Shown: positions 8,653 to 50,879 of the stretch, piece by piece
Position numbering within the stretch: position 1 is the first letter of the stretch
Layout: each line of letters starts with the position of its first letter
Source: an uncultured Candidatus Saccharibacteria bacterium
Lineage (GTDB): Bacteria; Patescibacteriota; Minisyncoccia; Phycocordibacterales; UBA9973
NCBI GenBank assembly: GCA_964631935.1
Contig: CAZWAV010000001.1
Span: forward strand, 116,482-180,481
Direction of reading: 5' to 3'
DNA: 64,000 nt
The notes under the pieces: generated by a model
What the model was told of the DNA's origin: nothing
The model's input: only the letters and a program-made list of their open reading frames with translations
The model's database searches: none
Translations under genes and position numbers: made by a program

Positions 8653-8673
8653 TTATTAGATATCTTAAAACAT

Positions 8674-9297: not shown

Positions 9298-9308
9298 AAT
9301 AATTAAAA

Positions 9309-9339
9309 ATGCTATCCAAATATTGGATAGCATTTTAAA
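9309..9339. terminator. bidirectional intrinsic terminator between convergent genes
   Basis: Perfect 9-bp hairpin GCTATCCAA-ata-TTGGATAGC flanked by A-run and T-run. Confidence 0.5.
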
Positions 9340-9355
9340 TTAGTCTATAAGTAAT

Positions 9356-9631: not shown

Positions 9632-9708
9632 AATTGGAAATTTAATGGTTATTATTTATGATTTGAATTTTGTTTGCATCATTATAGCAAACTATTTACT
9701 AAAAGTCA

Positions 9709-9741
9709 AGCAAAATACCCTTTAATTTAAAGGGTATTTTG
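9709..9741. terminator. palindromic hairpin, likely terminator of pfkB-family gene
   Basis: AAATACCCTTTAA-TT-TAAAGGGTATTT perfect palindrome. Confidence 0.4.
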
Positions 9742-9752
9742 CTTCTAGCCTA

Positions 9753-10745: not shown

Positions 10746-10777
10746 ATATGCTCATTATAACATAGTGTGATATAATT

Positions 10778-11650: not shown

Positions 11651-11653
11651 TAA

Positions 11654-28389: not shown

Positions 28390-30060
28390 ATGACTCAAGC
28401 ACAGGCACTTGCCATTATGAAGACAGGAGTGAATGTGTACCTCACAGGATCTGCTGGAAGTGGAAAGACTTATCTTCTCAATCAATATATTTCATACCTA
28501 AGCGACCACGACATCCCCGTGGCTGTTACTGCATCCACTGGCATTGCTGCTACTCACATGAACGGCATGACCATCCACGGCTGGGCAGGTATTGGCATCA
28601 AAGATACCATGGATGAGCACGATATCGAACTCTTAGAAGGCAAGCAATACTTATGGAAGAGATTCGAGAAAGCTCGAGTGCTTATTATCGATGAAGTCTC
28701 TATGCTTCACGCACATCGTCTCGATATCGTCGAGCGTGTATGCCGAAGATTTAAAAGAAGCGATAAGCCTTTTGGAGGATTACAAGTTATTCTCTCTGGT
28801 GATTTCTTTCAGCTTCCTCCGATCAATCGTTCAAATGAACCAGATCTGAAAGACATGGTCCTCTATAGCGAGGCGTGGCGCATAATGGCTCCAGCTATTT
28901 GCTACCTGACTGAACAACACCGCCAAGACGATGAGATGCTCACAGGTATACTCAATGCTATACGCGACAATTCTATAGACACACTTCATTACGAAGAATT
29001 AGAGAAAAGATTAAATGCCGAGCTTGCAGATGGTGTACGCCCGACAAAGCTCTACACCCACAACGCCAATGTCGACACGGAGAACAGTGCCGAACTCGGA
29101 TCAATAAAAAGCGATGAGAAAATGTACAAGATGACTTCGACCGGTCCTGAGGTACTTGTAGAAATATTAAAGAAGAGTTGCTTAGCTCATGAAGAATTAC
29201 GACTGAAAGTCGGAGCAGAAGTCATGTGCATCAAGAATAATTTCGAAGCCGGATATGTGAATGGCTCAAGAGGTAAGGTCATCGCATTCCTAGATTCAGA
29301 TAATACTCCGATTATAGAGCTCTATAATGGCAAGACCATATACGCTACACCTGAGACATGGGCCATAGAAGAAAATGGTAAGGAGAAGGCGAGCATCAGC
29401 CAGTTACCGATACGCCTGGCTTGGGCTATTACTATCCATAAGAGCCAAGGTATATCACTCGATAATGCTGAGATAGACCTCTCTCGAGCTTTTGCCTATG
29501 GTATGGGATATGTAGCGCTCTCACGCGTGCGTACCCTCGCTGGTATTCGACTTATAGGGTTCAATCCTGACTCTCTTCGTGTTGACCCGAAAGTCTTAGA
29601 ATTCGACCAAGATCTTCGCAATGAAAGTACTCAGAATGAACTCATGTTCGGCAAGTTAAAGAAAGGCGAGCAAGAGAAACTTGAACATGATTTCATTTCT
29701 CGTATGGGTGGAATGATAAAGAAAGGCGACAAGAGAAAAGAAGCTCCGGTTAAAATTTCAACTGTTATGGTGACTAAAGAATTACTTGATCAAGGCAAAT
29801 CCATAAAGGAGATCTGCAAAGCACGAGATCTGACCCCAGGTACCATCACTCACCATATCGAACAGATCATCGAGCAATATCCAGAAACAAATATTTCTCA
29901 TATCAAGCCAAAACAAAAACATATAGACATAGTAAAGAAAGCTAACTCCACGCTCGAAGGTGAAGAAGTAGGGAAGTTAAGTCCAATCAAAATGATATTA
30001 GAGAAAGATGGGCACAAGTTATCATTTGAAGATATAAGATTGGCTAAATTATTTATATGA
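28390..30060 (+). CDS. Pif1/RecD-family ATP-dependent DNA helicase with C-terminal HTH domain
   Basis: 556 aa. Walker A LTGSAGSGKTYLL, Walker B LIIDEVSM and motif ITIHKSQG typical of SF1B helicases. It has a C-terminal HTH-like tail. Confidence 0.8.
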   Translation: MTQAQALAIMKTGVNVYLTGSAGSGKTYLLNQYISYLSDHDIPVAVTASTGIAATHMNGMTIHGWAGIGIKDTMDEHDIELLEGKQYLWKRFEKARVLIIDEVSMLHAHRLDIVERVCRRFKRSDKPFGGLQVILSGDFFQLPPINRSNEPDLKDMVLYSEAWRIMAPAICYLTEQHRQDDEMLTGILNAIRDNSIDTLHYEELEKRLNAELADGVRPTKLYTHNANVDTENSAELGSIKSDEKMYKMTSTGPEVLVEILKKSCLAHEELRLKVGAEVMCIKNNFEAGYVNGSRGKVIAFLDSDNTPIIELYNGKTIYATPETWAIEENGKEKASISQLPIRLAWAITIHKSQGISLDNAEIDLSRAFAYGMGYVALSRVRTLAGIRLIGFNPDSLRVDPKVLEFDQDLRNESTQNELMFGKLKKGEQEKLEHDFISRMGGMIKKGDKRKEAPVKISTVMVTKELLDQGKSIKEICKARDLTPGTITHHIEQIIEQYPETNISHIKPKQKHIDIVKKANSTLEGEEVGKLSPIKMILEKDGHKLSFEDIRLAKLFI

Positions 30061-30338
30061 TAAAAAAGAAAACTAAGAAATTAAGTTTGTTTACAGAGCG
30101 AGTACTAAATATTGTCTCTAGTATAAAGCGCGGTCAGACTATGACTTATAAAGAAGTGGCAGAGAGAGCCGGCAGCCCAGGGGCGGCCAGAGCTGTAGGA
30201 TCTATTATGAAAGCCAATTACAAGCCAGGTGTACCTTGTCATCGTGTTATCCGAAGTGATGGAATTATAGGTGAGTATAATCGTGGCGGCCCTAGAGAGA
30301 AATATAAAAAGCTCAAGAAAGAAGGTGCAATAAAGTAG
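30057..30338 (+). CDS. methylated-DNA--protein-cysteine methyltransferase (MGMT/Ogt) DNA-binding domain protein, stand-alone C-domain
   Basis: 93 aa. PCHRVI active-site cysteine motif and the TYKEVAERAG HTH. Its start overlaps the helicase stop (ATGA). Confidence 0.75.
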   Translation: MIKKKTKKLSLFTERVLNIVSSIKRGQTMTYKEVAERAGSPGAARAVGSIMKANYKPGVPCHRVIRSDGIIGEYNRGGPREKYKKLKKEGAIK

Positions 30339-30342
30339 GGAA

Positions 30343-31158
30343 TTAATTCATGGTTGCTCTATCTTTTATTTCTTCTAATTCTTTTATACGTTGGTCAATA
30401 TTATCCCCTAGACCTCTCATAGATATAAATTCATCCCAATCTGGAGAATCAAAAAAGGAGATTGCTTCCTTTACTTCTTCACTCTTTGCATATCTTTCCA
30501 TCTCTAAAGAGATCAGTTCTTTTTTGAGAGGTATTAATTTGGCATTTATATTTTTTATTTTCTCTGAGAGTAATATTTCGGCTTTCCAATCTAGTAATTT
30601 TGCAACACCGCTTGGCTTAACCAATCCAAGAGATATAATCTTTGTTATCTTGTCTGAAATTTCACTACTTTTTAGTAATTTTGAATTATTTGGATCTTTA
30701 AGAAGAGCACCTCGAACTTCTTCCTCAGAGAGAATTTCACGCCATTTATGATTAGCCAGAGTCTGATCAATTACATCTCGCTCCAAACGAAGTGGTTCTT
30801 GTTCACTTTCGATTTCATCTTTTTTGTACTCAATTATGGTGATTTCTTTTTCCAATCGAGGAACTTGATTAAGCTCTACAATCTGCTTTGCGTACTTTTT
30901 CTGTAATAATTCTAATTTTTCTCTATCTTTTTTATTATTTTCCAAAAGCTCTGTACGGCCCTTTTTTTGAATATTCTCTGCTTGTTTTATGTCTTCGATT
31001 GATGCCTCTGATACATCCCATGTTGAATCGATAGGTTCAGTTGATTCTCCTTCATATTTTTGTTCGGGATCATCATAGTTGAGCTTTCCGCTTAATTCTG
31101 CTTTCTTTTCAAGGTCTTTCACATCTTCTTTAGTGATACCTTTAAATGTTTCTTTCAT
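30343..31158 (-). CDS. hypothetical coiled-coil protein
   Basis: 271 aa, E/K-rich with heptad patterns. No family recognised. Confidence 0.4.
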   Translation of the reverse strand: MKETFKGITKEDVKDLEKKAELSGKLNYDDPEQKYEGESTEPIDSTWDVSEASIEDIKQAENIQKKGRTELLENNKKDREKLELLQKKYAKQIVELNQVPRLEKEITIIEYKKDEIESEQEPLRLERDVIDQTLANHKWREILSEEEVRGALLKDPNNSKLLKSSEISDKITKIISLGLVKPSGVAKLLDWKAEILLSEKIKNINAKLIPLKKELISLEMERYAKSEEVKEAISFFDSPDWDEFISMRGLGDNIDQRIKELEEIKDRATMN

Positions 31159-31220
31159 GTGTTAATTATACCACTTAATTCCTAGTAAATTTAACCAAAA
31201 AGGAATATAATTAACTCGTT

Positions 31221-31769
31221 ATGCAAACACGTTTAATTTCAATAATCATAGGTGCGGTACTCATAGTAAGTATGGGGTCTTTAGTTTATAAGACAAAAAA
31301 GCCAGTAATCTTGCCTACTGAGGAAGGCACAACAAGCGAATCACTCCTTAATGACAATTCCAAACCTGCTCAAACGACTACTCCAGTAAAGCCTAGCACT
31401 CAGCCATCAGTCAAAAAGTATGTATCAGACGATGATGATGACGAAAGTGATGACGATGACAGAGGTAGTACAACAAGCCCAGTAGTAACTCCAAAACCAG
31501 TCACCACCACTCCACCACCTACTACAACAGGAGGAGGTATTACTCTTGCGACCATAGCTAAACATAATTCACGTTCAAGCTGTTGGTCAGCTATCAATGG
31601 TAGTGTGTACGACCTGACAAGCTGGATACCGAATCACCCAGGAGGAGAGCAGGCTATTCTTTCACTTTGTGGTATTGATGGATCAAATGGCTACAATAGT
31701 CAGCATGGTGGGAGCTCAAAGCCGGCTAGAATACTCGGAGGATTTAAAATTGGAACTTTTGCAAAGTAA
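31221..31769 (+). CDS. membrane-anchored cytochrome b5-like heme-binding domain protein
   Basis: 182 aa. N-terminal TM, a D/E run (DDDDDESDDDD), a T/P-rich linker, and a C-terminal cyt-b5 fold with YDLTSWIPNHPGG. Confidence 0.6.
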   Translation: MQTRLISIIIGAVLIVSMGSLVYKTKKPVILPTEEGTTSESLLNDNSKPAQTTTPVKPSTQPSVKKYVSDDDDDESDDDDRGSTTSPVVTPKPVTTTPPPTTTGGGITLATIAKHNSRSSCWSAINGSVYDLTSWIPNHPGGEQAILSLCGIDGSNGYNSQHGGSSKPARILGGFKIGTFAK

Positions 31770-31775
31770 AATTTT

Positions 31776-32183
31776 ATGAATATAAATATAAATATAACAA
31801 GACAAGAGTTCGGTATGCATTTACTCCGCTTAGGGCTTTCTGCCGTTTTCCTTTGGTTTGGATTCTCGCAATTAATAGATAGCCTTTCTTGGGTAGCGAT
31901 CGTTCCAGATTGGGCTGTAAACCTTTTGCATATGCCTCCAGCTATGATCGTCATGGCTAATGGAGTATTTGAAGTGGTACTTGCAAGTCTACTTGCTATG
32001 GGATTCTTTGTGCGAATTATTTCTTTCGTACTTGCCCTTCACCTTATATCTATTGCTTTTGATTTTGGATTTTCCGCCACAGGTATCCGCGACCTTGGTC
32101 TAGTTATAGCTTCTTTTGCTCTATCGTTCATGTACACGAAGAAAGAGAACTCAGCCCCAGCTACACCAATATCAAATATATAA
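31776..32183 (+). CDS. DoxX-like small membrane protein
   Basis: 135 aa with about 4 TM segments. N-terminal LRLGLSAVFLWFGFSQL is typical of the DoxX family. Confidence 0.45.
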   Translation: MNININITRQEFGMHLLRLGLSAVFLWFGFSQLIDSLSWVAIVPDWAVNLLHMPPAMIVMANGVFEVVLASLLAMGFFVRIISFVLALHLISIAFDFGFSATGIRDLGLVIASFALSFMYTKKENSAPATPISNI

Positions 32184-32185
32184 AC

Positions 32186-32413
32186 ATGTACATACATGTG
32201 AAAGTTACCACTGGAGTAAAGAAAGAAGTATTCAAGATAAAGAACGATGATCATTTTGAAATTTCTGTTCGCGAGAAAGCTGAGCGTAATCTGGCCAATA
32301 CTCGCGTAATAGAGCTTGTCGCTCTTCATTTCAATATTCCAATATCTCACATCCGTATAATCAATGGTCACCACAGCCCAAGCAAACTTTTATCAATCAA
32401 TAATTTAATCTAA
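32186..32413 (+). CDS. DUF167 (YggU-like) protein
   Basis: 75 aa. VKV...G..N...A.L..LA..F.V..S.I.I..G..S..K pattern. Confidence 0.5.
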   Translation: MYIHVKVTTGVKKEVFKIKNDDHFEISVREKAERNLANTRVIELVALHFNIPISHIRIINGHHSPSKLLSINNLI

Positions 32414-32519
32414 AATTTATGGGACTTGTATTCATGCTATTCATATTCTGTATTGTACTTATCCTTATTAAGGTAGAGCGTGATAGGCAAGAGAAGAATG
32501 GAGGAGGTCATCACTAAAT

Positions 32520-32936
32520 GTGGTATTATTGGTGTATATGAACAATTCATACAACTGGTACTCTACTCTTATAAAGCCTACCTGGTCACCACCTTCATGG
32601 CTTTTTGGGCCAGTATGGACATTCCTTTATATTCTTATCACCATATCTTTTGGTAAAGTATTCATGATGCTATATCAGAAGCAAATATCTTTTATGGTTG
32701 CGCTTCCATTTATCTTAAATCTTATTTTCAACTTTTCATTTACTTATTTTCAATTCGGATTAAAGAACAACCTCCTCGCTGCCATCGATATAGTCCTTAT
32801 ACTCACTACCATCATCTGGGCGATGATCGCCATCTTCCCATATGCCAAGTGGATTACTTATATTCAGATACCGTACCTGCTTTGGGTATCATTTGCGACG
32901 ATCCTACAGCTAACTATCACTTACTTAAATAGATAA
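32520..32936 (+). CDS. TspO/MBR family tryptophan-rich sensory protein
   Basis: 138 aa. WYSTLIKPTWSPPSWLFGPVWTFLY is diagnostic of TspO. Confidence 0.7.
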   Translation: MVLLVYMNNSYNWYSTLIKPTWSPPSWLFGPVWTFLYILITISFGKVFMMLYQKQISFMVALPFILNLIFNFSFTYFQFGLKNNLLAAIDIVLILTTIIWAMIAIFPYAKWITYIQIPYLLWVSFATILQLTITYLNR

Positions 32937-32938
32937 AG

Positions 32939-33385
32939 ATGAATTTAGACTTTATTGGATTGTTCATATTAATAGCAGGGTTTATCATCGGACTCGGGTC
33001 CGTGACCGTGATTGATATTCATGGATTTTTAGGCAGAAAGTCATCTTACTGGACAGAAGCTACTATACGCACCCACAAGGTCACAAAGCCACTTATCTGG
33101 CTTGGAACTATACTTGCGATAATTGGTGGTCTTATATTTTATCGTAATGAATCACTCTCTAACATCCCTTACTATCATGCATTAATTGCCTGCGTGCTTA
33201 TAATCAATGGCATTTTCTTGTCTTTCTACGTCAGTCCATTTTTATTAAAACAAGAGCGCGAAGGGAAGCAGAGCGAGCTTTTGCCTTCATCGCTACAGAA
33301 TAAAATAATTGTAAGCTTAATATTTTCTGATATAGGTTGGTGGGGAGGCTTAGGATTGTTAGTTTACTATCTCATCAATCATTAA
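32939..33385 (+). CDS. hypothetical integral membrane protein
   Basis: 148 aa with four hydrophobic helices. Confidence 0.4.
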   Translation: MNLDFIGLFILIAGFIIGLGSVTVIDIHGFLGRKSSYWTEATIRTHKVTKPLIWLGTILAIIGGLIFYRNESLSNIPYYHALIACVLIINGIFLSFYVSPFLLKQEREGKQSELLPSSLQNKIIVSLIFSDIGWWGGLGLLVYYLINH

Positions 33386-33390
33386 TCTTC

Positions 33391-33846
33391 ATGCCGAAAA
33401 AGATCAAGGATAATTCAGACATAATTTTTAAACCGCAATTAACTCCAAAGCAAATGCTAAAGCTTGGTGTATTCGGTGGCTACTATTTTGAAGTTAAAAC
33501 AAAGGATATCCCAAAAGAAATAATAAAGCTCGCAAATATTTCAAAAACCAAAAAGAAAGACCCTAAATTAAATTATTTCAAAGTGAGCGCTAGTCAGCCA
33601 CTTTCTGTATGGCAAAAGAAGGGTTGGATAAATAAAGTTGATCCAAATGGTTGGTTCGAATGGTATATAAAATATTTTTATGGAAGAAGATTAGATAAGG
33701 AAGACGCGAGGCAGATAAAGAGGTGGTATATGATGCGCCGGCACATAACCCAAGTGAAAAACAATTGCAGGGTGAGTGATACATTCTGCCGTCCCCGTCA
33801 AAGACAAGCCCTCCTACACTGGGCATATGATTCGAGAAAAATTTAA
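33391..33846 (+). CDS. hypothetical protein
   Basis: Start chosen at MPKKIKDN, avoiding overlap with the upstream gene. Basic and W-rich, with no family recognised. Confidence 0.35.
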   Translation: MPKKIKDNSDIIFKPQLTPKQMLKLGVFGGYYFEVKTKDIPKEIIKLANISKTKKKDPKLNYFKVSASQPLSVWQKKGWINKVDPNGWFEWYIKYFYGRRLDKEDARQIKRWYMMRRHITQVKNNCRVSDTFCRPRQRQALLHWAYDSRKI

Positions 33847-34127
33847 TGAAAAAAGTTTATAAAATAAAAGCGAAGGTTTGGCGATGGCCTGGAGATGCCG
33901 GCTGGCATTTCGTAAATGTAGACAAAAAAATATCTGAACAAATACGCAAGGCTTACCCAAAAGGCTTTGTAAAGATTAGAGCCCAAATAGGGAAGACCAT
34001 ATGGGATACATCGCTATTTCCACACAAACTCTCAGCCTCATATCTCTTGTCTGTCAAAGCTAGTGTTCGTAAAAAAGAAAGTATTTTCGAAAGTGATGAA
34101 GTAAAAATTGAGTTTCGAATTAAATAA
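33846..34127 (+). CDS. DUF1905 family protein
   Basis: 93 aa. The WHFVNV...GFVKIRAQIGKTIWDTSLFP...DEVKIEF pattern is typical of DUF1905. Confidence 0.5.
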   Translation: MKKVYKIKAKVWRWPGDAGWHFVNVDKKISEQIRKAYPKGFVKIRAQIGKTIWDTSLFPHKLSASYLLSVKASVRKKESIFESDEVKIEFRIK

Positions 34128-34129
34128 TT

Positions 34130-34624
34130 CTAAATCTCCTTAAGTAAATCCTCCACATCAAGAGGCTCGGTGACCATTTCGACGAGGCCGTCGTTTGAAA
34201 CTTTCCATTCTGAGCGTGGGCGGTCACAGTAAAGCTCGACTCCGATACCGTCGGGGTCGTTTAGATATATGGCTTCAGATACTCCATGATCTGCAGTGCC
34301 TGTGAGAGGGTAGCCCGCATCTATGAGACGCTTGAGGACAAGCGCAAGCTCGCGGCGTGTAGGGAAGAGAATTGCATGGTGGTAGATACCACTGTGGCCC
34401 GCAGGTGGAGGAGTAGCGCCTTTGCCAGCCCACGTATTGAGCCCTATATGGTGATGGTAGCCCCCAGCAGAGAGAAATACAGCTGACGTGCCATATCGAG
34501 CTGTAACCTCAAATCCCAAGATATCACGATAAAAAGCTAGAGATCTATCTAAGTCTCCCACGGTCAAATGCACATGACCTATTTGTACGTCTTTGTGTAT
34601 TTTGTTGTCATTTTCTTTTACCAT
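34130..34624 (-). CDS. VOC-family (glyoxalase/bleomycin-resistance/dioxygenase) protein
   Basis: 164 aa. Paired beta-alpha-beta-beta-beta modules with metal-ligand His/Glu positions (HVHLTV, HHHIGL, E near the C-terminus). Confidence 0.7.
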   Translation of the reverse strand: MVKENDNKIHKDVQIGHVHLTVGDLDRSLAFYRDILGFEVTARYGTSAVFLSAGGYHHHIGLNTWAGKGATPPPAGHSGIYHHAILFPTRRELALVLKRLIDAGYPLTGTADHGVSEAIYLNDPDGIGVELYCDRPRSEWKVSNDGLVEMVTEPLDVEDLLKEI

Positions 34625-34742
34625 ACTTATATTATACCAGACCCGTCAAGCGGCTAGTATTGCTACTCTTGACATTTTAGATATTTTATATATAATTTGC
34701 TGAAATTAACCCCATCCTTTTTAAACTCTAATACACAAAATT

Positions 34743-35612
34743 ATGAAAAAACTATTTTTCTTAATACCTATTTTTGCTCTCTTTTCCTGCGAACCAGAAA
34801 AAGAAACAAAACCATTCTTGGATGCTGATGGTATACCTATGCCGACTCACTATTTCACTAATGACTTTACAGGTAAGATGCTGGACAGTACTGAGATCGG
34901 AAAACTCAATCGCAGGCTCAAAGCATACGAAGACAGTACGACAAATCAGATTGTGGTTATCTGCCTCCCTAAACTTCCAGACAATAAAAATGGAAATACA
35001 TGGAATCTTGAAGAGCTCACTACTGAAACTTTTCGTAAATGGGGAATAGGACAGAAAGATAAAAACAATGGTGTATTGTTTCTTATTGCTTTTGATGACC
35101 ATAAGAATCGTATTGAGCCTGGATATGGCCTCGAAGGAGCATTACCTGACATTATCTGCAAGCATATTCTCGATGAAAATGTAAAACCACATTTTGAAGA
35201 CGAAAAATATTACGAGGGTATTGATGAGGCTATAACAAAGATGGAGAAAGCTATCGCCGGTGAATATTTGGCAGAACGAAAAGCCGAAAAAGATGAGTAC
35301 AATTTCTGGATCTGGCTTGCTGTCGGTTTAGGGATCGCAGGACTTCTAGGATTCATCCGACTCATCATTGCTGCAATAGTAGGAGGAGCATATGGTGGTT
35401 TCTATTGGTACTACATGCACCCACCACTACATGATATACCTGAAGCTATTGCTGCTGTATTTATTTGTGCGGTACTGGGAATTATAGCTAAATTCGTTAT
35501 CGAAGCTGGTATTGGATTTGATGGTAGTAGTAGTGATAGTTCTGGAGGTAGTGGAGGGTTCTTCGGGGGAGGAGGTGGCTCTGGAGGTGGCGGAGCCAGT
35601 GGAAGTTGGTAA
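34743..35612 (+). CDS. TPM-domain (phosphatase-like) lipoprotein with C-terminal TM and Gly-rich tail
   Basis: 289 aa. Lipobox LFSC, a TPM domain core, then a TM and a GGSGGFFGGGGGSGGGG tail. Confidence 0.6.
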   Translation: MKKLFFLIPIFALFSCEPEKETKPFLDADGIPMPTHYFTNDFTGKMLDSTEIGKLNRRLKAYEDSTTNQIVVICLPKLPDNKNGNTWNLEELTTETFRKWGIGQKDKNNGVLFLIAFDDHKNRIEPGYGLEGALPDIICKHILDENVKPHFEDEKYYEGIDEAITKMEKAIAGEYLAERKAEKDEYNFWIWLAVGLGIAGLLGFIRLIIAAIVGGAYGGFYWYYMHPPLHDIPEAIAAVFICAVLGIIAKFVIEAGIGFDGSSSDSSGGSGGFFGGGGGSGGGGASGSW

Positions 35613-35738
35613 AATATGTTTTTAATTAGAATATTGTACGGTCGCTTCTTTAAGAAGTGGCCGTTTTTATTTATTGACTTTTCAAGTAAAATGATGTAGA
35701 AAGTAGACAAATATTGAAAACAATTTAAACAAAAGTTT

Positions 35739-36368
35739 ATGAAAAAAGTTAGGAAACAGCAAGGGCCATTCTCGAACGCGGCCATAAAGAAATTACTCAA
35801 GCTTCATAATGCAATCAATGACCAAAAGTACAGGAAAGAATCTTTCAAAGAAAAATTGAAGGAACACGTGGTTAAAGGGTTTAAAATGCCTGAGAGAGCA
35901 ACAGTTGAGAACGCTTTGCAGGCGATGTACAAATACAAATCCAAAACCAAGTACAATTCTAAACTTTTGACAGGTATCATTGACGGTAGGTTTACTGAAA
36001 AAGGCTCAGCATGGGTACATGTAACAAATGAAAAAGATGATCTGGTTTGGACCAGGGAATTCTACAGGATAACTCCGAAAATCCTGATCGAGCGTTTATT
36101 GCCATATGCAATTGTTGCAAAAAATATCGCCGACGGCAGACCTCCTGGAATGAAACTGGCTTTTGCTGTAGGATCCGAAACTGAGTATGTATGGAAATCA
36201 AGCAATGGCCGGAAAGTGATACCTTTAAATTTAAACGATTACTTTACCAGTTTAACTAAGGAGCAAGTTGCTTTTGTTAAAGCCAACGAATCAAGTCGTA
36301 ATTCATATTTGCGCAGAACAGAAGGCCAGGTAACAAGACAAAGTAAAATCCAGAAAACCTGGAAATAA
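35739..36368 (+). CDS. hypothetical basic protein
   Basis: 209 aa. No family recognised. Confidence 0.4.
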   Translation: MKKVRKQQGPFSNAAIKKLLKLHNAINDQKYRKESFKEKLKEHVVKGFKMPERATVENALQAMYKYKSKTKYNSKLLTGIIDGRFTEKGSAWVHVTNEKDDLVWTREFYRITPKILIERLLPYAIVAKNIADGRPPGMKLAFAVGSETEYVWKSSNGRKVIPLNLNDYFTSLTKEQVAFVKANESSRNSYLRRTEGQVTRQSKIQKTWK

Positions 36369-36391
36369 AACAGTGTGAAAACATTAATAGC

Positions 36392-36423
36392 ATCCCATCT
36401 GCGAAAGCAATGGGATCTTTTTT
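36392..36423 (+). terminator. rho-independent terminator (plus strand)
   Basis: ATCCCAT-ctgcgaaagca-ATGGGAT followed by CTTTTTTATTTTT. Confidence 0.5.
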
Positions 36424-36434
36424 ATTTTTAGTAA

Positions 36435-36473
36435 TAAAAAAACTGATAGAGGACTTTCGTCATATCAGTTTTT
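36435..36473 (-). terminator. sequence-conserved GNRA-capped hairpin terminator element, copy 1
   Basis: A-run, then CTGATA-GAG-GAC-TTTC-GTC-A-TATCAG, then T-run. On the minus strand the tetraloop reads GAAA and is followed by U7. A second copy is at 46483..46517. Confidence 0.45.
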
Positions 36474-36490
36474 ATGCTTAAAACCTCCCG

Positions 36491-36985
36491 TTATTTTTCT
36501 TTATTTTGAACCTCAGTAATAGTAATGGAAACAATATCTGAAAATAGAATTTCGATAATATTATTAGAATTATTATCGAAGGTTCCCAATATAAATTGCC
36601 CTTTACTGTCAACAGGTCTCTCTTCGAGGAACTTCCTTTCACTTTTTACACCAACCTTTAACCATAAACGCGGTGCATCAATAGGTAAACCATTTATTGA
36701 GTCGCCTTTTTTAAATACTTTTATTCCAAAGACAGAAGTTGTAAACTGCCTATCTTCCAATGGATATTTGAATAAAACTTTTTCTTTAAACGTTCTAGTT
36801 TTTAGAACTTTAAATTTAAAGCTTACTGTCATTAAATAAGATTTATTTACTAAATCATATTTATTAGCAAAATCTTTTAAAAGCTTTTCTTCCCAATAAT
36901 TATAAGCATCTTCATTGCTGATAATTGATGGGTTTGAATTTAGGATAATCATCCGCGGGGTGGGTATGGCTGTATTTGCGTTCAT
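36491..36985 (-). CDS. hypothetical protein
   Basis: 164 aa. No family recognised. Confidence 0.4.
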   Translation of the reverse strand: MNANTAIPTPRMIILNSNPSIISNEDAYNYWEEKLLKDFANKYDLVNKSYLMTVSFKFKVLKTRTFKEKVLFKYPLEDRQFTTSVFGIKVFKKGDSINGLPIDAPRLWLKVGVKSERKFLEERPVDSKGQFILGTFDNNSNNIIEILFSDIVSITITEVQNKEK

Positions 36986-37074
36986 GTTTTGTTAATTTAC
37001 AGGTTAAAATTAGTATGACTTTAACATAAATTAAAGATAAAGTCAATATTTAACTTAGTTAAAATTCTCCCATT

Positions 37075-37102
37075 CAAAAAACCGCCAGATGGCGGGTTTT
37101 TT
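37075..37102. terminator. bidirectional intrinsic terminator-like hairpin
   Basis: CAAAAAA-CCGCC-agat-GGCGG-GTTTTTT. Confidence 0.45.
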
Positions 37103-37265
37103 GAATAGTATCAATGTACAATTTTTATAGAGCAGTGATGATCAATAGTCATGTGCGTCTACATCTATAGTGACGGTTCATAACTAGTATTCTTACAAGA
37201 TTATATTTATTTAAATAAATGCTCCCTTATAAAGAGAGCATTTTTAAATTCAGTCAGAAATTTTT

Positions 37266-37847
37266 TTACAAAGCTACTTGCTTTTGAACCATTATTTTAC
37301 GTAAGTTTATTAAACCATAACGCATCCGGCCCAATGCAGTATTGATACTACATTTGGTCAAAGCTGAGATCTCTTTGAAAGAGAGACCTGCGTAATGACG
37401 AAGTATCATAACTTCACGTTGATCTTCTGGAAGAATATCGATCATTTTCCTTACATTATCATGACTCTGATCAGTCATCATCCGCTTATCTACGCCAGGC
37501 TGAGAAAAGTTCAAGACTTCAAATATGTCGCGATCATCGCTTGTCTTAATGGTCGGAGTACGTTTCACTTTCCTGAAATGATCAACACATAGGTTGTGTG
37601 CAATACGTATTGCCCATGGTACAAATTTACCCTGGTCAGTATAACGACCGCCTCGCATAGTGTCTATAATCTTTAAGAACATATCCTGGAAAATATCTTC
37701 TGCAAGGTATTTATCTTTTGTAAGCAGATAAATAGAAGTAAAAATTTTGTCCTTGTGGCGCAACATCAAGGCGCCCAAAGCTTCAGCTTCTCCGTTTATA
37801 TATAAATGGATAAGTTGTTGGTCGGTTTTATTGACATATTTTTTCAT
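37266..37847 (-). CDS. RNA polymerase sigma-70 factor, ECF subfamily
   Basis: 193 aa. Region 2 (FQDMFLKI...WAIRIAHN) and region 4 (EVMILRHYAGLSFKEISALT) are present. Confidence 0.8.
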   Translation of the reverse strand: MKKYVNKTDQQLIHLYINGEAEALGALMLRHKDKIFTSIYLLTKDKYLAEDIFQDMFLKIIDTMRGGRYTDQGKFVPWAIRIAHNLCVDHFRKVKRTPTIKTSDDRDIFEVLNFSQPGVDKRMMTDQSHDNVRKMIDILPEDQREVMILRHYAGLSFKEISALTKCSINTALGRMRYGLINLRKIMVQKQVAL

Positions 37848-37968
37848 GTGTAAGGTTTTAAAAGATGAGTGGAAAAATTTCCTGTGGCCTTAAATTTAAT
37901 AGTACAACTTAGTACCATGCGTGTCAAAATTTTAATATTTTAATCCACATTTACTTATTGGCTTTGAG

Positions 37969-38463
37969 GTGTACAATACAAATATGAAAAAAACAATCTG
38001 GGTCATAGTGGCAATTCTTATTATTGGGGGCATCGTTTATTTTGCTAAATTTAAAAATACTGGTTCTGTGGCGGTCCACAAGGAAGGAGATCCTATCTGC
38101 TACGCTTACCACCAGGAGGCTACACCTAAAGCACCATACAAGGTAGATGAGTATATAAAGCTTGCTATTTTGGGTAATGTAGCCAAAGGCACAAAGACTG
38201 GCACACAAAGTGGCCCAGACATGACCAATGGATACACAGGTACCTTGGAAGGTACTTCCGACAAAGATACTATCAATGTACTTTATTCATACGAGATAGA
38301 AGGATCAAAAAATATGGAAAAGGAAATATATAAAGTTGTTCCAGCTGGGCTCGAGAAGTGGAGATACGTACTTGTAAATAGAAATGAAGTTCTGACTCCA
38401 GACACAACAAGCGAACCAAAGATAATTCCTTACAACACAATCGATTGTAAAGATGTCAAATAG
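37969..38463 (+). CDS. hypothetical secreted/membrane-anchored protein
   Basis: 164 aa. N-terminal signal/TM KKTIWVIVAILIIGGIVYFA. Confidence 0.4.
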   Translation: MYNTNMKKTIWVIVAILIIGGIVYFAKFKNTGSVAVHKEGDPICYAYHQEATPKAPYKVDEYIKLAILGNVAKGTKTGTQSGPDMTNGYTGTLEGTSDKDTINVLYSYEIEGSKNMEKEIYKVVPAGLEKWRYVLVNRNEVLTPDTTSEPKIIPYNTIDCKDVK

Positions 38464-38565
38464 CTAAATAATTGACAGACATGTACGGACTTGTATACTT
38501 AGAGCAAGGAGTGTTACATCCTTGCAATTTGCTCAAAAAAATCAATCATCAAAAAAAATCGTCAC

Positions 38566-38940
38566 ATGAAAAAGATTCACTCTGTTTCCATTATGGCAAT
38601 GATAATTGCAATAATGATGATGATGCCTTCTTCTGTTAGAGGAGGTGTTGTATCTCAAAGTGGTATAACTTTTACGCCTAAAGAAGACCCAGTAATTATT
38701 ACTGTATTTCCAAATCCGGCGATAAGAGATATATACATCAGGGGAGAAAATGTTGACCTTCATAACGCTCTGGTGCAGGTAATTGATGCAAAAGGTAAGG
38801 CTGTTGAAGTTCTTATGAGGCAGAATGGTAATGGCTATGAGATCCGTTTAGGTAAGGATATCCGGGCCGAAATACTGTTCATAAGAATAATAACCAAAGA
38901 TGGAAAAAGCTACTCAGCTAAAGTGATAAAAGTTAATTAA
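38566..38940 (+). CDS. small secreted protein consisting of signal peptide plus T9SS (Por) C-terminal sorting domain-like region
   Basis: 124 aa. The C-terminal ~75 aa (VFPNPA...LVQVIDAKGKAV...GYEIRLG...YSAKVIKVN) match the T9SS CTD pattern known from Bacteroidota. Confidence 0.5.
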   Translation: MKKIHSVSIMAMIIAIMMMMPSSVRGGVVSQSGITFTPKEDPVIITVFPNPAIRDIYIRGENVDLHNALVQVIDAKGKAVEVLMRQNGNGYEIRLGKDIRAEILFIRIITKDGKSYSAKVIKVN

Positions 38941-39097
38941 GATGGGAAACCGCTCAAAATAAATACCGGTGAAAGCCTCTATGCTTGTCGTACTACTATC
39001 CTATATAGATACGACAAGCTTTTTTATTAGCTATCCTGCTAGATAAGAGTATACTGAGATAGGATCGATATTATCATTTAAATTCATAACATTAAAT

Positions 39098-39319
39098 ATG
39101 GAAACTCAAACTAATATAACTCCAGCACCAGAAGGAAACAGTTCAGGTGCAAACACAGTCCTTCTTGTTCTAGTTGTAGTAATTCTTTTAGGATTCGGAT
39201 ACTGGTGGTACAAGCACAATAGAGGATCAGCAGCACCAGCACAGAACAATCCATCTATAAACGTAGATGTGAATCTACCAGCCTCTAGCTCAAGTACTTC
39301 AACAACACCAGCTCAGTAA
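39098..39319 (+). CDS. hypothetical small membrane protein
   Basis: 73 aa with one TM (VLLVLVVVILLGFGYWWY). Confidence 0.3.
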   Translation: METQTNITPAPEGNSSGANTVLLVLVVVILLGFGYWWYKHNRGSAAPAQNNPSINVDVNLPASSSSTSTTPAQ

Positions 39320-39352
39320 AACTTAACTAGTGATCCTTTGACATATTAATTA

Positions 39353-39550
39353 ATGTGGGTCTTAAAGTTTAAGATACTTGCATTAGTTTTTAATCAGAGT
39401 ACTATGGTAAGTGAGTTTCGCAAGTATGACGGATATGACAGTAATGAAATATCTTCAGTAGCAATATTGATAGCGCTTGTGGGTCTCATAAAAAAAGTGC
39501 AACAATTTTTATTAATTGAGGCGCTTTTTTTATTTGTATTTGAGGATTAG
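39353..39550 (+). CDS. hypothetical ORF (weak)
   Basis: 65-aa ORF only. Confidence 0.2.
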   Translation: MWVLKFKILALVFNQSTMVSEFRKYDGYDSNEISSVAILIALVGLIKKVQQFLLIEALFLFVFED

Positions 39551-40024
39551 TGATATAATAAGAATATGAAAATAATTAAAAAAAGAAATGTTAAAGCTCA
39601 AATCCCGCTTCCAGTAAAAGGGGATAAGAAGACAGACTTTGCTATCAAGCATCCTCCAAGCTTAAAACCGAAAAATAAACGCGCAAAGTAAAATAAAAAC
39701 CGCTGCCATAAGACGAGCGGTTTTTTCATTAAACCTAAAACCAAACTAAATAATTTTATCTTATTCTCTTATTCGAAGAAGCAGAATAATTTTTTGCCCA
39801 CATCAAAGCCTTATACATCAGCCAGATAATGAATATAAAGATCAGTGACCAAACTAAATATCCAGAGGTTTTTTCCCAATTGATAGCAATAAATATTGTA
39901 TTCATAACACAGATTTTAAGGTTTTGGAAAAATGTTTAATTCACTAGTATTTAAGTACTTTTGGTATATTTTGTCAACTATATGTGCTATAATAAGCGTA
40001 TATTAATAGTAACCTAAATATATT

Positions 40025-40210
40025 ATGGCAGTACTAAAAGCATTGTGCATGAAGTGTAGAGATGATAAGAATAAGCCGACTATGCAGGAGATGAAGAATC
40101 CTGTAGTCTCAGAAAAGAATGGTAGATACTCTGCAAAGGGCCAGTGTGCTGTGTGTGGAGGAAACATGTTTAAGTTCATGTCAAAGGCAGATGCTGAGGC
40201 AATGAAATAA
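40025..40210 (+). CDS. small zinc-ribbon protein
   Basis: 61 aa. CxxC...CxxC (CMKC...CAVC). Followed by the hairpin terminator AAAATACCCCTTAAAAGGGGTATTTTATTT. Confidence 0.4.
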   Translation: MAVLKALCMKCRDDKNKPTMQEMKNPVVSEKNGRYSAKGQCAVCGGNMFKFMSKADAEAMK

Positions 40211-47318: not shown

Positions 47319-48254
47319 CTAGTTTTTAGACCCAGAGGTATTAGTTGATAGACATGTATTAAATGCACGAACTCCAGTATTGTATTCCGAAATTTTTTGT
47401 TTCAAATCTAAAATCATTTGATTATATTTTAAGACAAGTGAGTTGTAATCAGTAATCTGCTCATTTGGGGTCTTCCCTGCGTATATTACCCCACTATCTA
47501 TCTTGCTACGTCTAAGGCTTAGATCAGTCTCTAGAGTCTTAAGATCTTTTTGGTTGAGTTTAATAATTCCATGCAAAGCTTCATTTATAGAAGGACAAGC
47601 ACTCCTTGGTAGGCCAAAATGCTGAACAGCGAGCCATGTATCATGACCATCGAACATTCCACGCCCCACAGCGACACCTATTTCGGTATAACTTTTATTT
47701 AAAATATTTGCGCGATGTCCCGGACTTGCCATCCATGCATCAAGAAGAGCTTTGGCGTCTTTAAAATTACCTAATGCAAGATTCTCTCCAATAACAATAT
47801 ATTCGTATGATACCCTATCACCTAAATCAGAAACTCCTATTCCATCTGGAGATATGTGCTCAAAGTATTGTTGTTTGAACATATCATTTAATTTTAACTG
47901 AGCAGAGAAATCTAATTTAGAATTTTCTTTAAGCGCTAGTAAATTACCATTGGATGCTCTGTTTGAATTTGTTAAAGCTATGACATCTTTTACTGAGAGC
48001 TTTACATTTGCTGTATCAGAAGTAAGACTATCTGTTACCTTCAAGGCTCCTGGTGTAATTACTTTCTTTAAAAGACTAGATACTTGCTCAGCTTTTATTA
48101 GTATATTGTCTTTTGTAGTACTATCTGGGTATTTATTTATCTTCCCTTCTATATAAGATACCGCACGATTATAGGCGACTTTAACATCATCTTTGACAAC
48201 AAATAGTGATAGTAAAACAAATATTATTATTATGATTTGATAAGAAATTTTCAT
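47319..48254 (-). CDS. secreted CAP/SCP/PR-1-like domain protein
   Basis: 311 aa. N-terminal signal/TM and a C-terminal CAP domain (GENLA...SPGHRANIL...YTEIGVAV). Confidence 0.6.
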   Translation of the reverse strand: MKISYQIIIIIFVLLSLFVVKDDVKVAYNRAVSYIEGKINKYPDSTTKDNILIKAEQVSSLLKKVITPGALKVTDSLTSDTANVKLSVKDVIALTNSNRASNGNLLALKENSKLDFSAQLKLNDMFKQQYFEHISPDGIGVSDLGDRVSYEYIVIGENLALGNFKDAKALLDAWMASPGHRANILNKSYTEIGVAVGRGMFDGHDTWLAVQHFGLPRSACPSINEALHGIIKLNQKDLKTLETDLSLRRSKIDSGVIYAGKTPNEQITDYNSLVLKYNQMILDLKQKISEYNTGVRAFNTCLSTNTSGSKN

Positions 48255-48257
48255 AAA

Positions 48258-48656
48258 TTATTTACATGATGTTGATGGACTGTAGCCTGATTTCTCAGCA
48301 TCCGAAGCAGTATCGAACCAGACTTTATTTTCTTCTTTTATTCTATTGGCACCTTTGCATGATGCACTATAATATAGTTTACCATTTTTTGAGGCGACAT
48401 AGTTACCCTCTTTTGAGATATTTGTACCTTGAGATTGTTTTTGTTTTACAGTAGAATAATTTCTTAAACTTTTTTCTTCATTTGCTACAACACTAGTGCT
48501 TTTTATGGAGCCAGGATAGACCTTATCTATCATAGATAGTCTCCCCAAACCAAAAGAAGAAAAACCCACTAAAATAAGGATAATAAGGTATATGGGCATA
48601 AAATTGCCATTTGCCATGCCCCTCTTGATTTTATGCAGGAAGTCATGTATACTCAT
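48258..48656 (-). CDS. hypothetical membrane-anchored protein
   Basis: 132 aa. N-terminal TM and 2 Cys in the C-terminal part. Confidence 0.4.
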   Translation of the reverse strand: MSIHDFLHKIKRGMANGNFMPIYLIILILVGFSSFGLGRLSMIDKVYPGSIKSTSVVANEEKSLRNYSTVKQKQSQGTNISKEGNYVASKNGKLYYSASCKGANRIKEENKVWFDTASDAEKSGYSPSTSCK

Positions 48657-48982: not shown

Positions 48983-49010
48983 AAAACCTCAACTAAAGTT
49001 GAGGTTTTTA
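48983..49010. terminator. bidirectional intrinsic terminator
   Basis: AAAAACCTCAAC-taaa-GTTGAGGTTTTTATTT. The T-run overlaps the stop of the convergent repeat-protein gene. Confidence 0.55.
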
Positions 49011-50879
49011 TTTACAAGAATTATTTATAAATCCAATTGTAACTTGTCCAACATATCCATCTGATTGGATATTAAAGTATGTCTGCATGCGTTTTATTGC
49101 TTTCTCTGAGATAGGCCCCAGATTGCCATCCTCTTTACCTGCATTAAACCCAAGTCTATTTAAATGGGCCTGGAGTATTTTAGCTTCTTTCACAATTCCT
49201 TTCGTATAAGAATTATATTTACCATCTACTGATCCCAATTTTAATTTTTGAGTTATCAATCTATCAGGAGCACAAAGTTGTACCACCTTATCAAGGCTAT
49301 TAAACTGATCTGGGAATTGCTTTATGATTGCGTCTGCTGCTTGCGTATTACCTATGGCAAGCAGATTTTGCACCCGACTCTGAGCGGTCGAATGGCTACT
49401 CCTACTCGATACGGTTGTACTACACGTTGTACCACCATCAGTAATAGTCCAACCATACGTACTGATAATACTTGCTCTTTGGGTAGCTGATGTACAATAC
49501 GTACTATTTCCTCCATCAAATGTTACATTTGATTTCAAAGCAAGTGCTGACCATTTTGTAATAAGTGCATCATAGTTTGTAGTAGAGAGTTTTACTCCAT
49601 TAAACATATTATTCATATAACTAACATTCGACACATCCCAATCACTAATATCTTGATCAAAAGACACTGCACTATCAAACAGGCTCGATAAAGACAGGAG
49701 GTTTGATACATTCCACGAATTTAATGGCTGATTAAATGAGGTTGCGCTATTAAACATTCCTTCTATTGATGAAGAAGATGATATATCCCAAGAATTTAAC
49801 GGTTGATTAAATGAGGTTGCTTGCTGAAACATAGAATCCATACTAAGTACATTTGATACATTCCACGAGTTTAAAGGTTGATTAAAAGATGTCGCACCAC
49901 TAAACATATACCCAATATCTACTACAGAAGACACGTTCCAAGAGTTTAATGGTTGATTAAAAGATGTCGCACCATTAAACATACTATTCATACTCTGTAC
50001 ATTCCCAACATTCCATGGGTCTAATGGTTGATTAAAAGATGTCGCTCCTTCAAACATACTACTCATGTCTGTTACTGAAGAAGTATTAAAATCATTTACA
50101 ATCCCATTAAACGAAGTTGCCCCTTTAAACATATTACTCATATTAGTCACTGACGATGTTGTTGTCCAGATAAAACCTTGATTAAAAGATGTCGCTCCTT
50201 CAAACATACCACCCATGTTTGTTACTGAAGAAACATCCCAACTTCCTAGATATTGATTAAAAGACGTTGCCCCTTTAAACATATTACTCATATTTGTTAC
50301 AACTGGGGCAAACCAAAAAGCAATACCAGAGTTATTAAAAGATGTTGCTCCTTCAAACATGCTACTTACAGTAGTAACATTTGTAAAATCCCAAGAAGAA
50401 GTATCAGGATTGACAGATGTCGCATCTCGAAACATCCCACTCATATCGGTCACAGTAGATAGGTTAGGTGCATCTCCGGCATTTATCACAAGATTGTTCG
50501 CCCCATAAAATGCATTGGCCATAGAAGTCCACACCTGGGAGCCCCATGACTCTACAGACAATATTTTACTTTTGTCTCCTCCGTTATTAAAGTATATACG
50601 TGGAAACGCCCCAGAAATAGTGATCGTATATGTTCCCGGAGATGAGTAAGTATGAGTGATGCTCCCTGTCACACCAGTATTCGAATTAGTATCCCCCCAG
50701 TTAACAGTATAGTTGTAAGTATCGCCAGTATGTGTAGGTATTGTTATTTGATTTGAAGTAGATACTCCCGGATTATCAGTCTTCCATGTTGTAATAAATT
50801 CACCTACAGCAAAAGCACTCTTTGGTAATATGAGTATGTTTAAAAATATAAAGAATAGAATATATGTTATTTTTTTCAT
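49008..50879 (-). CDS. large secreted surface protein: signal peptide, PKD/Ig-like N-domain, ~11 tandem 26-residue repeats (DUF285/TIGR02167-like), C-terminal peptidoglycan-binding domain
   Basis: 623 aa. The unit ...MFxGATSFNQPLNSWNVSxVxxMxx... has a 26-aa period. The C-terminus carries a PG_binding_1-like region, LNRLGFNAGKEDGNLGPISEKAIKRMQ. Confidence 0.7.
   Translation of the reverse strand: MKKITYILFFIFLNILILPKSAFAVGEFITTWKTDNPGVSTSNQITIPTHTGDTYNYTVNWGDTNSNTGVTGSITHTYSSPGTYTITISGAFPRIYFNNGGDKSKILSVESWGSQVWTSMANAFYGANNLVINAGDAPNLSTVTDMSGMFRDATSVNPDTSSWDFTNVTTVSSMFEGATSFNNSGIAFWFAPVVTNMSNMFKGATSFNQYLGSWDVSSVTNMGGMFEGATSFNQGFIWTTTSSVTNMSNMFKGATSFNGIVNDFNTSSVTDMSSMFEGATSFNQPLDPWNVGNVQSMNSMFNGATSFNQPLNSWNVSSVVDIGYMFSGATSFNQPLNSWNVSNVLSMDSMFQQATSFNQPLNSWDISSSSSIEGMFNSATSFNQPLNSWNVSNLLSLSSLFDSAVSFDQDISDWDVSNVSYMNNMFNGVKLSTTNYDALITKWSALALKSNVTFDGGNSTYCTSATQRASIISTYGWTITDGGTTCSTTVSSRSSHSTAQSRVQNLLAIGNTQAADAIIKQFPDQFNSLDKVVQLCAPDRLITQKLKLGSVDGKYNSYTKGIVKEAKILQAHLNRLGFNAGKEDGNLGPISEKAIKRMQTYFNIQSDGYVGQVTIGFINNSCK
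49440..50370 (-). repeat. ~78-bp tandem coding repeats (about 11 units) inside the surface-protein gene
   Basis: Protein-level 26-aa periodicity. The DNA units are degenerate. Confidence 0.6.

Follow-up and report, generated by a model that had tools for sequence, protein, structure and literature searches.

The DNA analysed here is a 64-kb stretch (hereafter the window) of a genome of the candidate phyla radiation (CPR), and its interval 35739–39550 holds two genes with relatives in Bacteroidota. One encodes an extracytoplasmic function (ECF) sigma factor, and the other a 124-residue protein that resembles the C-terminal sorting domain (CTD) of proteins secreted by a type IX secretion system (T9SS). 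We interpret the former as a probable acquisition from a Chitinophagaceae-like donor and the latter as a probable re-use of the CTD fold, carried in a cassette that is replaced as a whole. An earlier note, made from the letters of the sequence, had singled out this interval as a Bacteroidota-flavoured block in CPR-like surroundings. The genome sequence examined was the window, and the CPR comparison loci were the regions around the gene for the ribosome-biogenesis GTPase YsxC, which lies 1.5 kb downstream of the block. We refer to the closest reference metagenome-assembled genome (MAG; YsxC 86% identical) as L005, to further CPR MAG loci as L006, L025 and L029, to the second (sister) population as L084/L090, to the sigma factor of the sister population as P0003 and to a further variant of the CTD protein as P0002. 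The features on which the argument turns are as follows.

37071–37163, no strand: conserved intergenic element with a bidirectional terminator hairpin (37082–37095), from the comparison with L005 and a terminator scan
37266–37847, minus strand: ECF-type sigma-70 factor of 193 residues (Sigma70_r2, Sigma70_r4_2, TIGR02937), with Bacteroidota relatives
37899–37927, minus strand: promoter-like site upstream of the sigma gene, TTGACA-17-TACTAT, 10 of 12 matches in a consensus scan
38472–38499, plus strand: promoter-like site in the conserved flank directly upstream of the variable gene, TTGACA-16-TATACT, 11 of 12 matches, the best of the scan
38511–39003, plus strand: variable cassette without alignment to the ~92%-identical sister population (blastn breakpoints)
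38566–38940, plus strand: 124-residue protein with a predicted Sec signal peptide, a ~20-residue linker and a T9SS type A CTD-like β-sandwich (residues ~44–124), without a cargo domain

The flanks of 35739–39550 are those of a CPR genome, in agreement with the earlier note. The 30 best genome matches of YsxC are MAGs at 60–86% identity, the named ones being Paceibacteria, Paceibacterota, Nomurabacteria, Minisyncoccia and 'Saccharibacteria', whereas identity to genomes outside the CPR does not exceed 47%; for MAGs assigned to Paceibacteria, Nomurabacteria and Minisyncoccia the range is 64–86%. The other genes of the window are housekeeping genes (F1Fo ATPase, MurF, GatB, GAPDH, release factor and others), and L005 is syntenic with the window on both flanks.

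The identical 124-residue protein, in the same gene order, was found on contigs from three Joint Genome Institute (JGI) metagenomes and one Logan run, four assemblies from separate samples with 99.8–100% identity over every junction. Over 15,685 bp, the locus L002 shows 100.000% identity to the window; for L001 and L003 the figure is 99.84%, with every difference outside the block. The sister population, at 91–95% DNA identity (~92%), was assembled in eight runs (SRR21621035-44) with the gene order orf209, sigma, orf151, 124-aa open reading frame (ORF), orf73, orf41, DUF5679 and YsxC. Because the same junctions recur in four assemblies and in a diverged sister population, the assembly is authentic and a chimeric join, one of the options raised earlier, is excluded. 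An assembly chimera or binning contamination, in which Bacteroidota DNA was joined to a CPR contig, could appeal to a sigma factor 76–80% identical to Bacteroidota proteins and to a composition unable to separate the two sources. Yet the JGI and Logan contigs agree although they stem from different samples, the sigma factor of the sister population has co-diverged to 93% amino-acid identity, the CPR sigma copies form a pair of their own, and the sigma DNA is only 69% identical to the Chitinophagaceae gene and so does not come from contaminating reads of a co-occurring Bacteroidota organism. This explanation is scarcely credible.

Two observations concern these contigs. L004, a 10.7-kb JGI contig, is 99.99% identical to window positions 30381–40066, and its ends (1–416 and 10103–10672) match neither the window nor any of the comparison loci; the breakpoints, at window positions 30381 and 40066, fall within the h271 and DUF5679 genes. 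Either the variable segment of ~9.7 kb has different surroundings in that sample, or the contig ends are artefacts of assembly. In L001 (20.4 kb), 30 of the 33 differences from the window fall in a CAP/SCP-domain gene (47319–48254) and the adjacent gene for a 132-residue protein (48258–48656). These two genes are a hot spot of strain-level single-nucleotide polymorphisms, and their products may be secreted.

The CTD protein and its replaceable cassette

The protein encoded at 38566–38940, which the earlier note took for a signal peptide followed by a T9SS CTD, matched the TIGR04183 model at 26.1 bits (cutoff 23) over residues 47–122 and the Pfam model PF18962 at 23.8 bits, just under the gathering score of 27. 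By eye, its N-terminus reads as a Sec signal peptide, with MKK as its n-region, then a hydrophobic core and PSSVRG as its c-region. The CTD starts with a PNP motif and lies at the extreme C-terminus (residues 47–122 of 124). No cargo domain was found in the protein, and only ~20 residues lie between the predicted cleavage site and the CTD.

An exhaustive HMMER search of 1.84 billion representatives (E ≤ 1e-3) returned 10 matches, nine of which were scanned for domains: one was the P0002 variant, six carried Por_Secre_tail at the extreme C-terminus and two were unrelated Big_3 repeat proteins. The six Por_Secre_tail matches align to query residues ~45–122 and include a CotH kinase, an esterase, a Laminin_G_3 protein and a 1,809-residue PKD/HYR protein; Filimonas, Chitinophagales and Leadbetterella are the named organisms among the matches. 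Word-index searches for CTD relatives, with the single sequence and with an alignment of four variants, returned only the four variants themselves, and an ad-hoc hidden Markov model found no CTD paralogue in the window.

The AlphaFold model built from the four variants was confident for residues 41–124 (pLDDT 88–92) and predicted seven strands. It superposes on the CTDs of mirolase, NucA, RemZ and RemA at 1.8–2.1 Å. The structures listed beside the model are PorZ and the CTDs of NucA and RemZ, both bound to the SprA translocon, and the closest structures to the modelled domain are the translocon-bound CTDs 8glk_D and 8gl8_D. When a profile of the variants was compared with Protein Data Bank (PDB) sequences, the top match was the C-terminal 98 residues of 5jvk; a Foldseek search of the PDB gave only generic immunoglobulin (Ig)-like and CopC matches, which do not discriminate.

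Judged by its profile matches and predicted fold, the 124-residue protein is most probably a true homologue of the Bacteroidota CTDs. Like T9SS type A CTDs (TIGR04183/PF18962), it matches the profile from end to end, starts with PNP, ends the protein, follows an N-terminal Sec signal peptide and is modelled as a seven-strand β-sandwich. The standard T9SS cargo consists of a signal peptide, one or more functional domains, an Ig-like domain and a CTD (PMC7712824); by contrast, the 124-residue protein has neither cargo nor Ig-like spacer, and its gene belongs to a CPR genome whose sequenced window shows no T9SS gene. It further differs from the usual CTDs in its near-threshold scores, in the absence of the G-x-Y motif and in being part of a rapidly replaced cassette.

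The limits of this cassette were defined by comparison with the sister population. In a sliding comparison, DNA identity is 17–70% within 38511–39003 and 93–97% outside it; the flanks of the cassette are 91–97% identical and the cassette gene ~30%. The slot in the sister population also holds a gene for a 124-residue protein of the same layout, with a TIGR04183 score of 30.1 bits. The synonymous divergence (dS) of the CTD gene is ~2.3 (saturated), compared with 0.19–0.34 in the adjacent orf209, orf159, orf73 and YsxC genes. Divergence on this scale beside such neighbours did not arise by point mutation in place, and therefore recombination within the conserved flanks introduced a diverged allele. 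In this comparison, whole-allele replacement thus explains the divergence of the cassette. A template/variable repeat pair of the kind seen in diversity-generating retroelements, and inverted or direct repeats of mobile elements, were sought at the cassette and indel edges, and none was found.

The promoter-like site in front of the cassette does not vary with it: the hexamers at 38472–38499 are identical in L090, and TTGACA-16-TATACT also precedes the variant of L005. The L005 slot holds a fourth variant, of 117 residues, that scores 22.2 bits with TIGR04183 (cutoff 23) and is accompanied by no sigma gene. The BLASTP match between this variant and the protein of the window (27% identity, E = 0.05) is too weak by itself. 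Among 5.8 billion clustered proteins, only four types of CTD protein were found for this slot. Within one type (the window protein and P0002, 59% identical), the ratio of non-synonymous to synonymous rates (dN/dS) is ~0.13–0.20, a rough value with dS near saturation, which suggests that the CTD protein is under constraint.

CTD proteins are not unique to the CPR lineage of the window, as judged from L025, a more distant CPR MAG. Directly beside YsxC, on the minus strand at 10620–11723, this locus encodes a 367-residue protein with a clear CTD (TIGR04183 42.3 bits; Pfam 45 bits, gathering score 27). The neighbours on both sides match CPR loci best, and the GC content of the gene equals that of the contig. 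No domain was recognised in the N-terminal part of this secreted protein.

The sigma factor

The protein encoded at 37266–37847 has the domains of an ECF sigma factor: Pfam Sigma70_r2 at 44.3 bits (residues 28–97), Sigma70_r4_2 at 39.1 bits (residues 130–170) and TIGR02937 at 80.4 bits (cutoff 42.9). Regions 1 and 3 are absent, which agrees with the ECF (group 4) layout; the top NCBIfam model, PRK12513, scores under its cutoff. The earlier note had recognised the ECF factor correctly, and had called its region-2 and region-4 layout abundant in Bacteroidota. That layout is generic to ECF sigma factors and not specific to Bacteroidota, and the affinity to this phylum emerged instead from the homology search.

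The search gave at least 8,000 candidates, all at E ≤ 1e-10. The best 120 of these, which were analysed, are 76–80% identical to the query over all 193 residues, and the named organisms among them are Chitinophagaceae, Ferruginibacter and Pedobacter. Members of the Bacteroidota set are ~89% identical to one another, whereas the window copy and P0003 (93%) form a pair that is 76–82% identical to all of the set. P0003 is the only other CPR copy among the loci sampled; sigma-like genes elsewhere on these loci are at most 26% identical to that of the window. At 13 positions, residues conserved in at least 95% of the Bacteroidota set are altered in the window protein, and about half of these changes are common to both CPR copies. 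Between the window and L090, the gene shows 15 non-synonymous and 50 synonymous differences (dN/dS 0.054), a sign of strong purifying selection, and we therefore regard it as a constrained, working gene.

In Chitinophagaceae, the donor-type locus has the order uvrA, sigma, MBOAT. Because no other gene between 30 and 42 kb of the window matches the Chitinophagaceae loci, the sigma gene alone would have been transferred. It is missing from L005 despite synteny on both sides. The GC content at third codon positions (GC3) is 0.36 and 0.34 in the two CPR copies, 0.40 in the donor-type genes and 0.29 ± 0.04 on average in the genes of the window; the intermediate values fit an old transfer with continuing drift toward the composition of the host genome. 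For the sigma gene, comparison of the two CPR populations gives a dS of 0.62, roughly double the value for orf209 and orf159 on its flanks (0.29); the same continuing drift may explain this excess. Altogether, these comparisons support acquisition of the sigma gene from a Chitinophagaceae-like Bacteroidota donor, without its donor neighbours. Like the 193-residue sigma factors of Chitinophagaceae/Sphingobacteriales, the window protein has equal length, 76–80% identity, regions r2 and r4_2 and no adjacent anti-sigma gene; it differs from the Chitinophagaceae orthologue in lying in a Paceibacteria genome amid unrelated neighbours, in the 13 altered conserved residues and in a GC3 shifted toward its host. 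The best match to the sigma factor among phages and plasmids was 41% identical, and no vector was identified; viral contigs scanned with the CTD alignment gave no match.

Nucleotide composition did not set the block apart. Its tetranucleotide distance from the window has z = 0.10 and ranks 49th of 121, so that it is no outlier. The donor-type (Chitinophagaceae) loci have a GC content of 37.5%, equal to that of the window, and the test has little power here because the two share this value. The earlier note had named composition and coverage identical to those of the flanks, together with best matches in the phylum of the contig, as findings that would refute its reading. The composition is like that of the flanks, but the best sigma matches lie outside the phylum of the contig. 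More generally, composition tests are blind to transfer between genomes of equal GC content.

A strong terminator is predicted on both strands downstream of the sigma gene (37082–37095). It lies in the conserved element 37071–37163, of ~95 bp, which is 85% identical to L005 8262–8356, whereas the neighbouring genes are ~72% identical. This element forms the left edge of the segment with sigma and orf159 that is missing from L005. It had no match in Rfam and is possibly a conserved regulatory or small-RNA element. The total number of promoter-like sites in the region is not above chance, which makes the site at 37899–37927, upstream of the sigma gene, only suggestive.

A cognate anti-sigma gene beside an ECF sigma gene is usual but not universal. 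None adjoins the sigma gene at the window locus: of its two neighbours (listed below), orf164m is a dispensable indel gene without a family match, and the membrane anchor of orf159, at the very N-terminus, leaves no room for a cytoplasmic anti-sigma domain. The Bacteroidota orthologue likewise has no adjacent anti-sigma gene.

Neighbouring genes and the accessory region

The remaining features of the interval are as follows.

35739–36368, plus strand: orf209, a native, lineage-specific CPR gene with orthologues in CPR MAGs
36429–37070, minus strand: strain-specific indel with orf164m (36491–36985), absent from L084/L090, with clean breakpoints
37984–38463, plus strand: orf159, encoding an N-terminal membrane anchor and an extracytoplasmic region of ~130 residues, divergent from the sigma gene; the gene-caller ATG is at 37984
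39098–39319, plus strand: orf73, encoding a small single-pass membrane protein; no family match, 95.9% identical in L090, dN/dS 0.10

All ORFs named in the earlier note lie where it had placed them. As it had said, no family is matched by those at 35739, 36491, 37969 and 39098; the comparison covered Pfam, NCBIfam, PHROGs and PADLOC. The orthologues of orf209 are 72% identical in L005, 38% in L029 and 96% in L090 (dN/dS 0.059); a metagenome scan with orf209 gave no confirmed relative. At the position of orf164m, L005 has a non-homologous gene for a 157-residue protein. The orf159 product is 96.7% identical in L090 (dN/dS 0.05). Since it has no cytoplasmic N-terminal domain, its predicted layout is not that of a typical anti-sigma factor; a single-sequence structure model (pLDDT 38) was unusable. 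No terminator is predicted between 38940 and 39098, and orf73 is possibly co-transcribed with the CTD gene. The 65-codon ORF at 39353–39550, which formed the right edge of the block in the earlier note, has a dN/dS of ~0.94, from only 7 differences (5.5 counted as non-synonymous, 1.5 as synonymous), and is unlikely to be a gene.

The variable stretch extends beyond the interval. In L006, a Paceibacteria MAG, a Pif1 helicase gene abuts DUF5679–YsxC (8043–10001), an adjacency which indicates that the whole window stretch of ~30.0–40.0 kb (30060–40025) is variable or accessory. This stretch includes Cyt-b5, DoxX, TspO, DUF1905, glyoxalase, TPM, sigma and CTD-protein genes, and no integrase or transposase. 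The TPM-domain gene (34743–35612) encodes a lipoprotein-type N-terminus (…ALFSC) and a glycine-rich tail. It lies in a 1.0-kb indel (34652–35672) that is absent from the sister population, with clean breakpoints and its own terminator at 35638–35664. The true compositional outlier of the region is the glyoxalase-family gene on the minus strand at 34130–34624, with a GC content of 49.1% and a GC3 of 44.8%, compared with 38.3 ± 2.8 and 29.3 ± 4.3 for the genes of the window. It is not in L005, is present in the sister population and may be another acquired gene.

Two further observations concern other parts of the window. The GatB ORF (1309–2832, TTG start at 1309) overlaps tRNA-Leu(TAA) at 1328–1410, and its Pfam match begins at residue 44; the two together place the true GatB start downstream of the tRNA. 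On the minus strand, 49008–50879 encodes a 623-residue protein whose PARCEL repeats are of the Mbov_0838 type; this family takes its name from surface lipoproteins of Mycoplasma and Listeria.

Explanations and implications

The general view is that CPR cells lack an outer membrane, and CPR bacteria are not known to possess a T9SS. A literature search on T9SS or Por_Secre_tail in CPR/Patescibacteria found no relevant report. The window contains no T9SS component; its largest ORF encodes 623 residues, and its annotated genes are housekeeping genes. Given the presumed lack of an outer membrane, and with no T9SS gene in the window, the 124-residue protein would not act as a secretion signal. The T9SS has been described as confined to Bacteroidetes/Bacteroidota (PMC11611037, PMC7906972). 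With domain homology on one side and no T9SS gene in the window on the other, the CTD fold has most likely been put to a new use in an organism that lacks T9SS, as a surface or secreted protein that would be exported by Sec and be independent of T9SS. Such repurposing was among the options of the earlier note. Its option of a horizontally acquired segment holds for the sigma gene, with its 76–80% identity to the Chitinophagaceae type, and fails for the interval as one block.

We therefore favour, with a probability of about 0.62, an explanation that combines sigma transfer with re-use of a CTD cassette, the interval being a mosaic of separate events in a strain-variable accessory region of a Paceibacteria/Nomurabacteria-like CPR genome. 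The sigma gene would have come from a Chitinophagaceae-like donor before the separation of the two CPR populations; the simplest timing is after the divergence of the L005 lineage, with loss in L005 as the alternative. Its product would bind the CPR RNA polymerase core and drive a small regulon and, with no evident anti-sigma partner, may be controlled at the level of its own expression. The conserved promoter is followed by a replaceable cassette, whose variants all specify a signal peptide with a short linker and a cargo-less, CTD-like β-sandwich. Exported by Sec, the protein would act as a free or surface-associated β-sandwich. The swapping of cassette alleles by recombination in the flanks would reflect selection that favours diversity in an exposed protein, for instance a protein in contact with a host or a phage.

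Transfer from Bacteroidota to Paceibacteria has already been reported (PMC12455944), and what is new here is the replaceable CTD cassette. The known single-gene transfers from Bacteroidota to Patescibacteria, such as that of gyrB into a Paceibacteria MAG, resemble the sigma case in direction and partners, in moderate divergence, in not being recent and in full integration (PMC12455944). Unlike gyrB, the sigma gene encodes a transcription initiation factor that must fit the RNA polymerase of the recipient, and a T9SS-tied domain adjoins it.

Several points weigh against the favoured explanation. The absence of T9SS was seen within the 64 kb of the window, and its genome-wide absence is assumed from knowledge of the phylum. 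Both genes are known here from their sequences alone, and the activity of the sigma factor with a CPR core enzyme is likewise a deduction. The donor clade is approximate, since it was placed with the 120 best matches and a neighbour-joining tree that had no outgroup. For the small proteins, the CTD scores are borderline, all of them below the Pfam gathering score and one below the NCBIfam cutoff, and the window variant lacks G-x-Y in the last CTD motif, which reads EILFIRI. The CPR variants are no closer to one another than to the Bacteroidota CTDs (pre-selected as best matches); with variants as distant as unrelated CTDs, old alleles and repeated captures are inseparable.

The CTD likeness might instead not be homology, the protein being a generic small Ig-like β-sandwich that matches the CTD models weakly by chance or convergence. 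We give this a slim chance. Transfer of all of 35739–39550 from one Bacteroidota donor would account for two Bacteroidota-type genes within 0.8 kb, both with Chitinophagales-like nearest relatives. It is nevertheless improbable: orf209 is native to CPR and orf164m is a separate indel, the donor-type locus shares the sigma gene alone with the window, L005 has a CTD variant without sigma, and the cassette has a history separate from that of its flanks. A third possibility is that the two genes work together, the CTD-only protein being a surface sensor that relays to the adjacent ECF sigma factor. In Porphyromonas gingivalis, PorA (PGN_0123) feeds the PorXY–SigP pathway, which serves as a precedent: there, a small CTD protein acts upstream of an ECF sigma factor without an adjacent anti-sigma gene (PMC7712824). 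Like the 124-residue protein, PorA is small, bears a CTD and has no enzymatic cargo, and its function is tied to an ECF sigma factor lacking a cognate anti-sigma gene (PMC7712824); the sigma and CTD genes of the window are 0.7 kb apart. However, the lectin-like Ig domain of PorA has no counterpart here, and homologues of PorA occur only in Porphyromonas (PMC7712824). This FimH-like lectin domain, and the PorX/PorY and outer membrane that PorA needs, were not seen here. No PorX/PorY-type two-component genes lie nearby, L005 retains the CTD gene without sigma, and the Chitinophagaceae sigma gene is not beside a CTD gene. Such a pair is very improbable.

Alternatively, the organism may be an epibiont of a Chitinophagales host, with secreted CTDs that bind surface parts of the host T9SS, such as PorV-type shuttles or the PorU/PorZ attachment complex. 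The CTDs would then serve in docking or in interference with host secretion, and the cassette would track variation in the host. The sigma factor is closest to Chitinophagaceae/Ferruginibacter, the named relatives of the CTD include Filimonas and Chitinophagales, the modelled domain is structurally nearest to the translocon-bound CTDs 8glk_D and 8gl8_D, and allele replacement fits an arms race. In addition, Bacteroidota have been proposed as frequent gene donors to, and possible partners of, Patescibacteria (PMC12455944). Against this, physical association is conjecture, with no sign of it; recognition of CTDs is understood to start on the periplasmic side, beyond the reach of an external protein; and the common taxonomic signal possibly reflects only a shared habitat, the Bacteroidota CTDs compared having been pre-selected as best matches. 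We consider this explanation unlikely. A bolder form of it, for which the odds are long, is that the lineage lives on Chitinophagales hosts, has taken up genes from them and has turned the T9SS sorting domain of the host into a secreted, rapidly swapped ligand of T9SS components on the host surface, for attachment or sabotage of secretion; the borrowed ECF sigma factor would answer the same cues as the host. If true, the presence of a CTD-only cassette in the sequence of an uncultured CPR bacterium would predict that its host belongs to Bacteroidota.

The explanation that we favour, sigma transfer with re-use of the CTD fold, implies that, outside T9SS, this fold is able to persist and diversify, and to be exchanged as a secreted module in its own right. 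The label "T9SS type A sorting domain-containing protein" in a CPR genome is thus not to be taken as evidence for T9SS. To our knowledge, the hosts of most Paceibacteria/Parcubacteria are not known, and few sequence features indicate them. In the window, a single small accessory region has two independent genes that trace to Chitinophagales-like Bacteroidota, which provides a testable lead to the partner organism.

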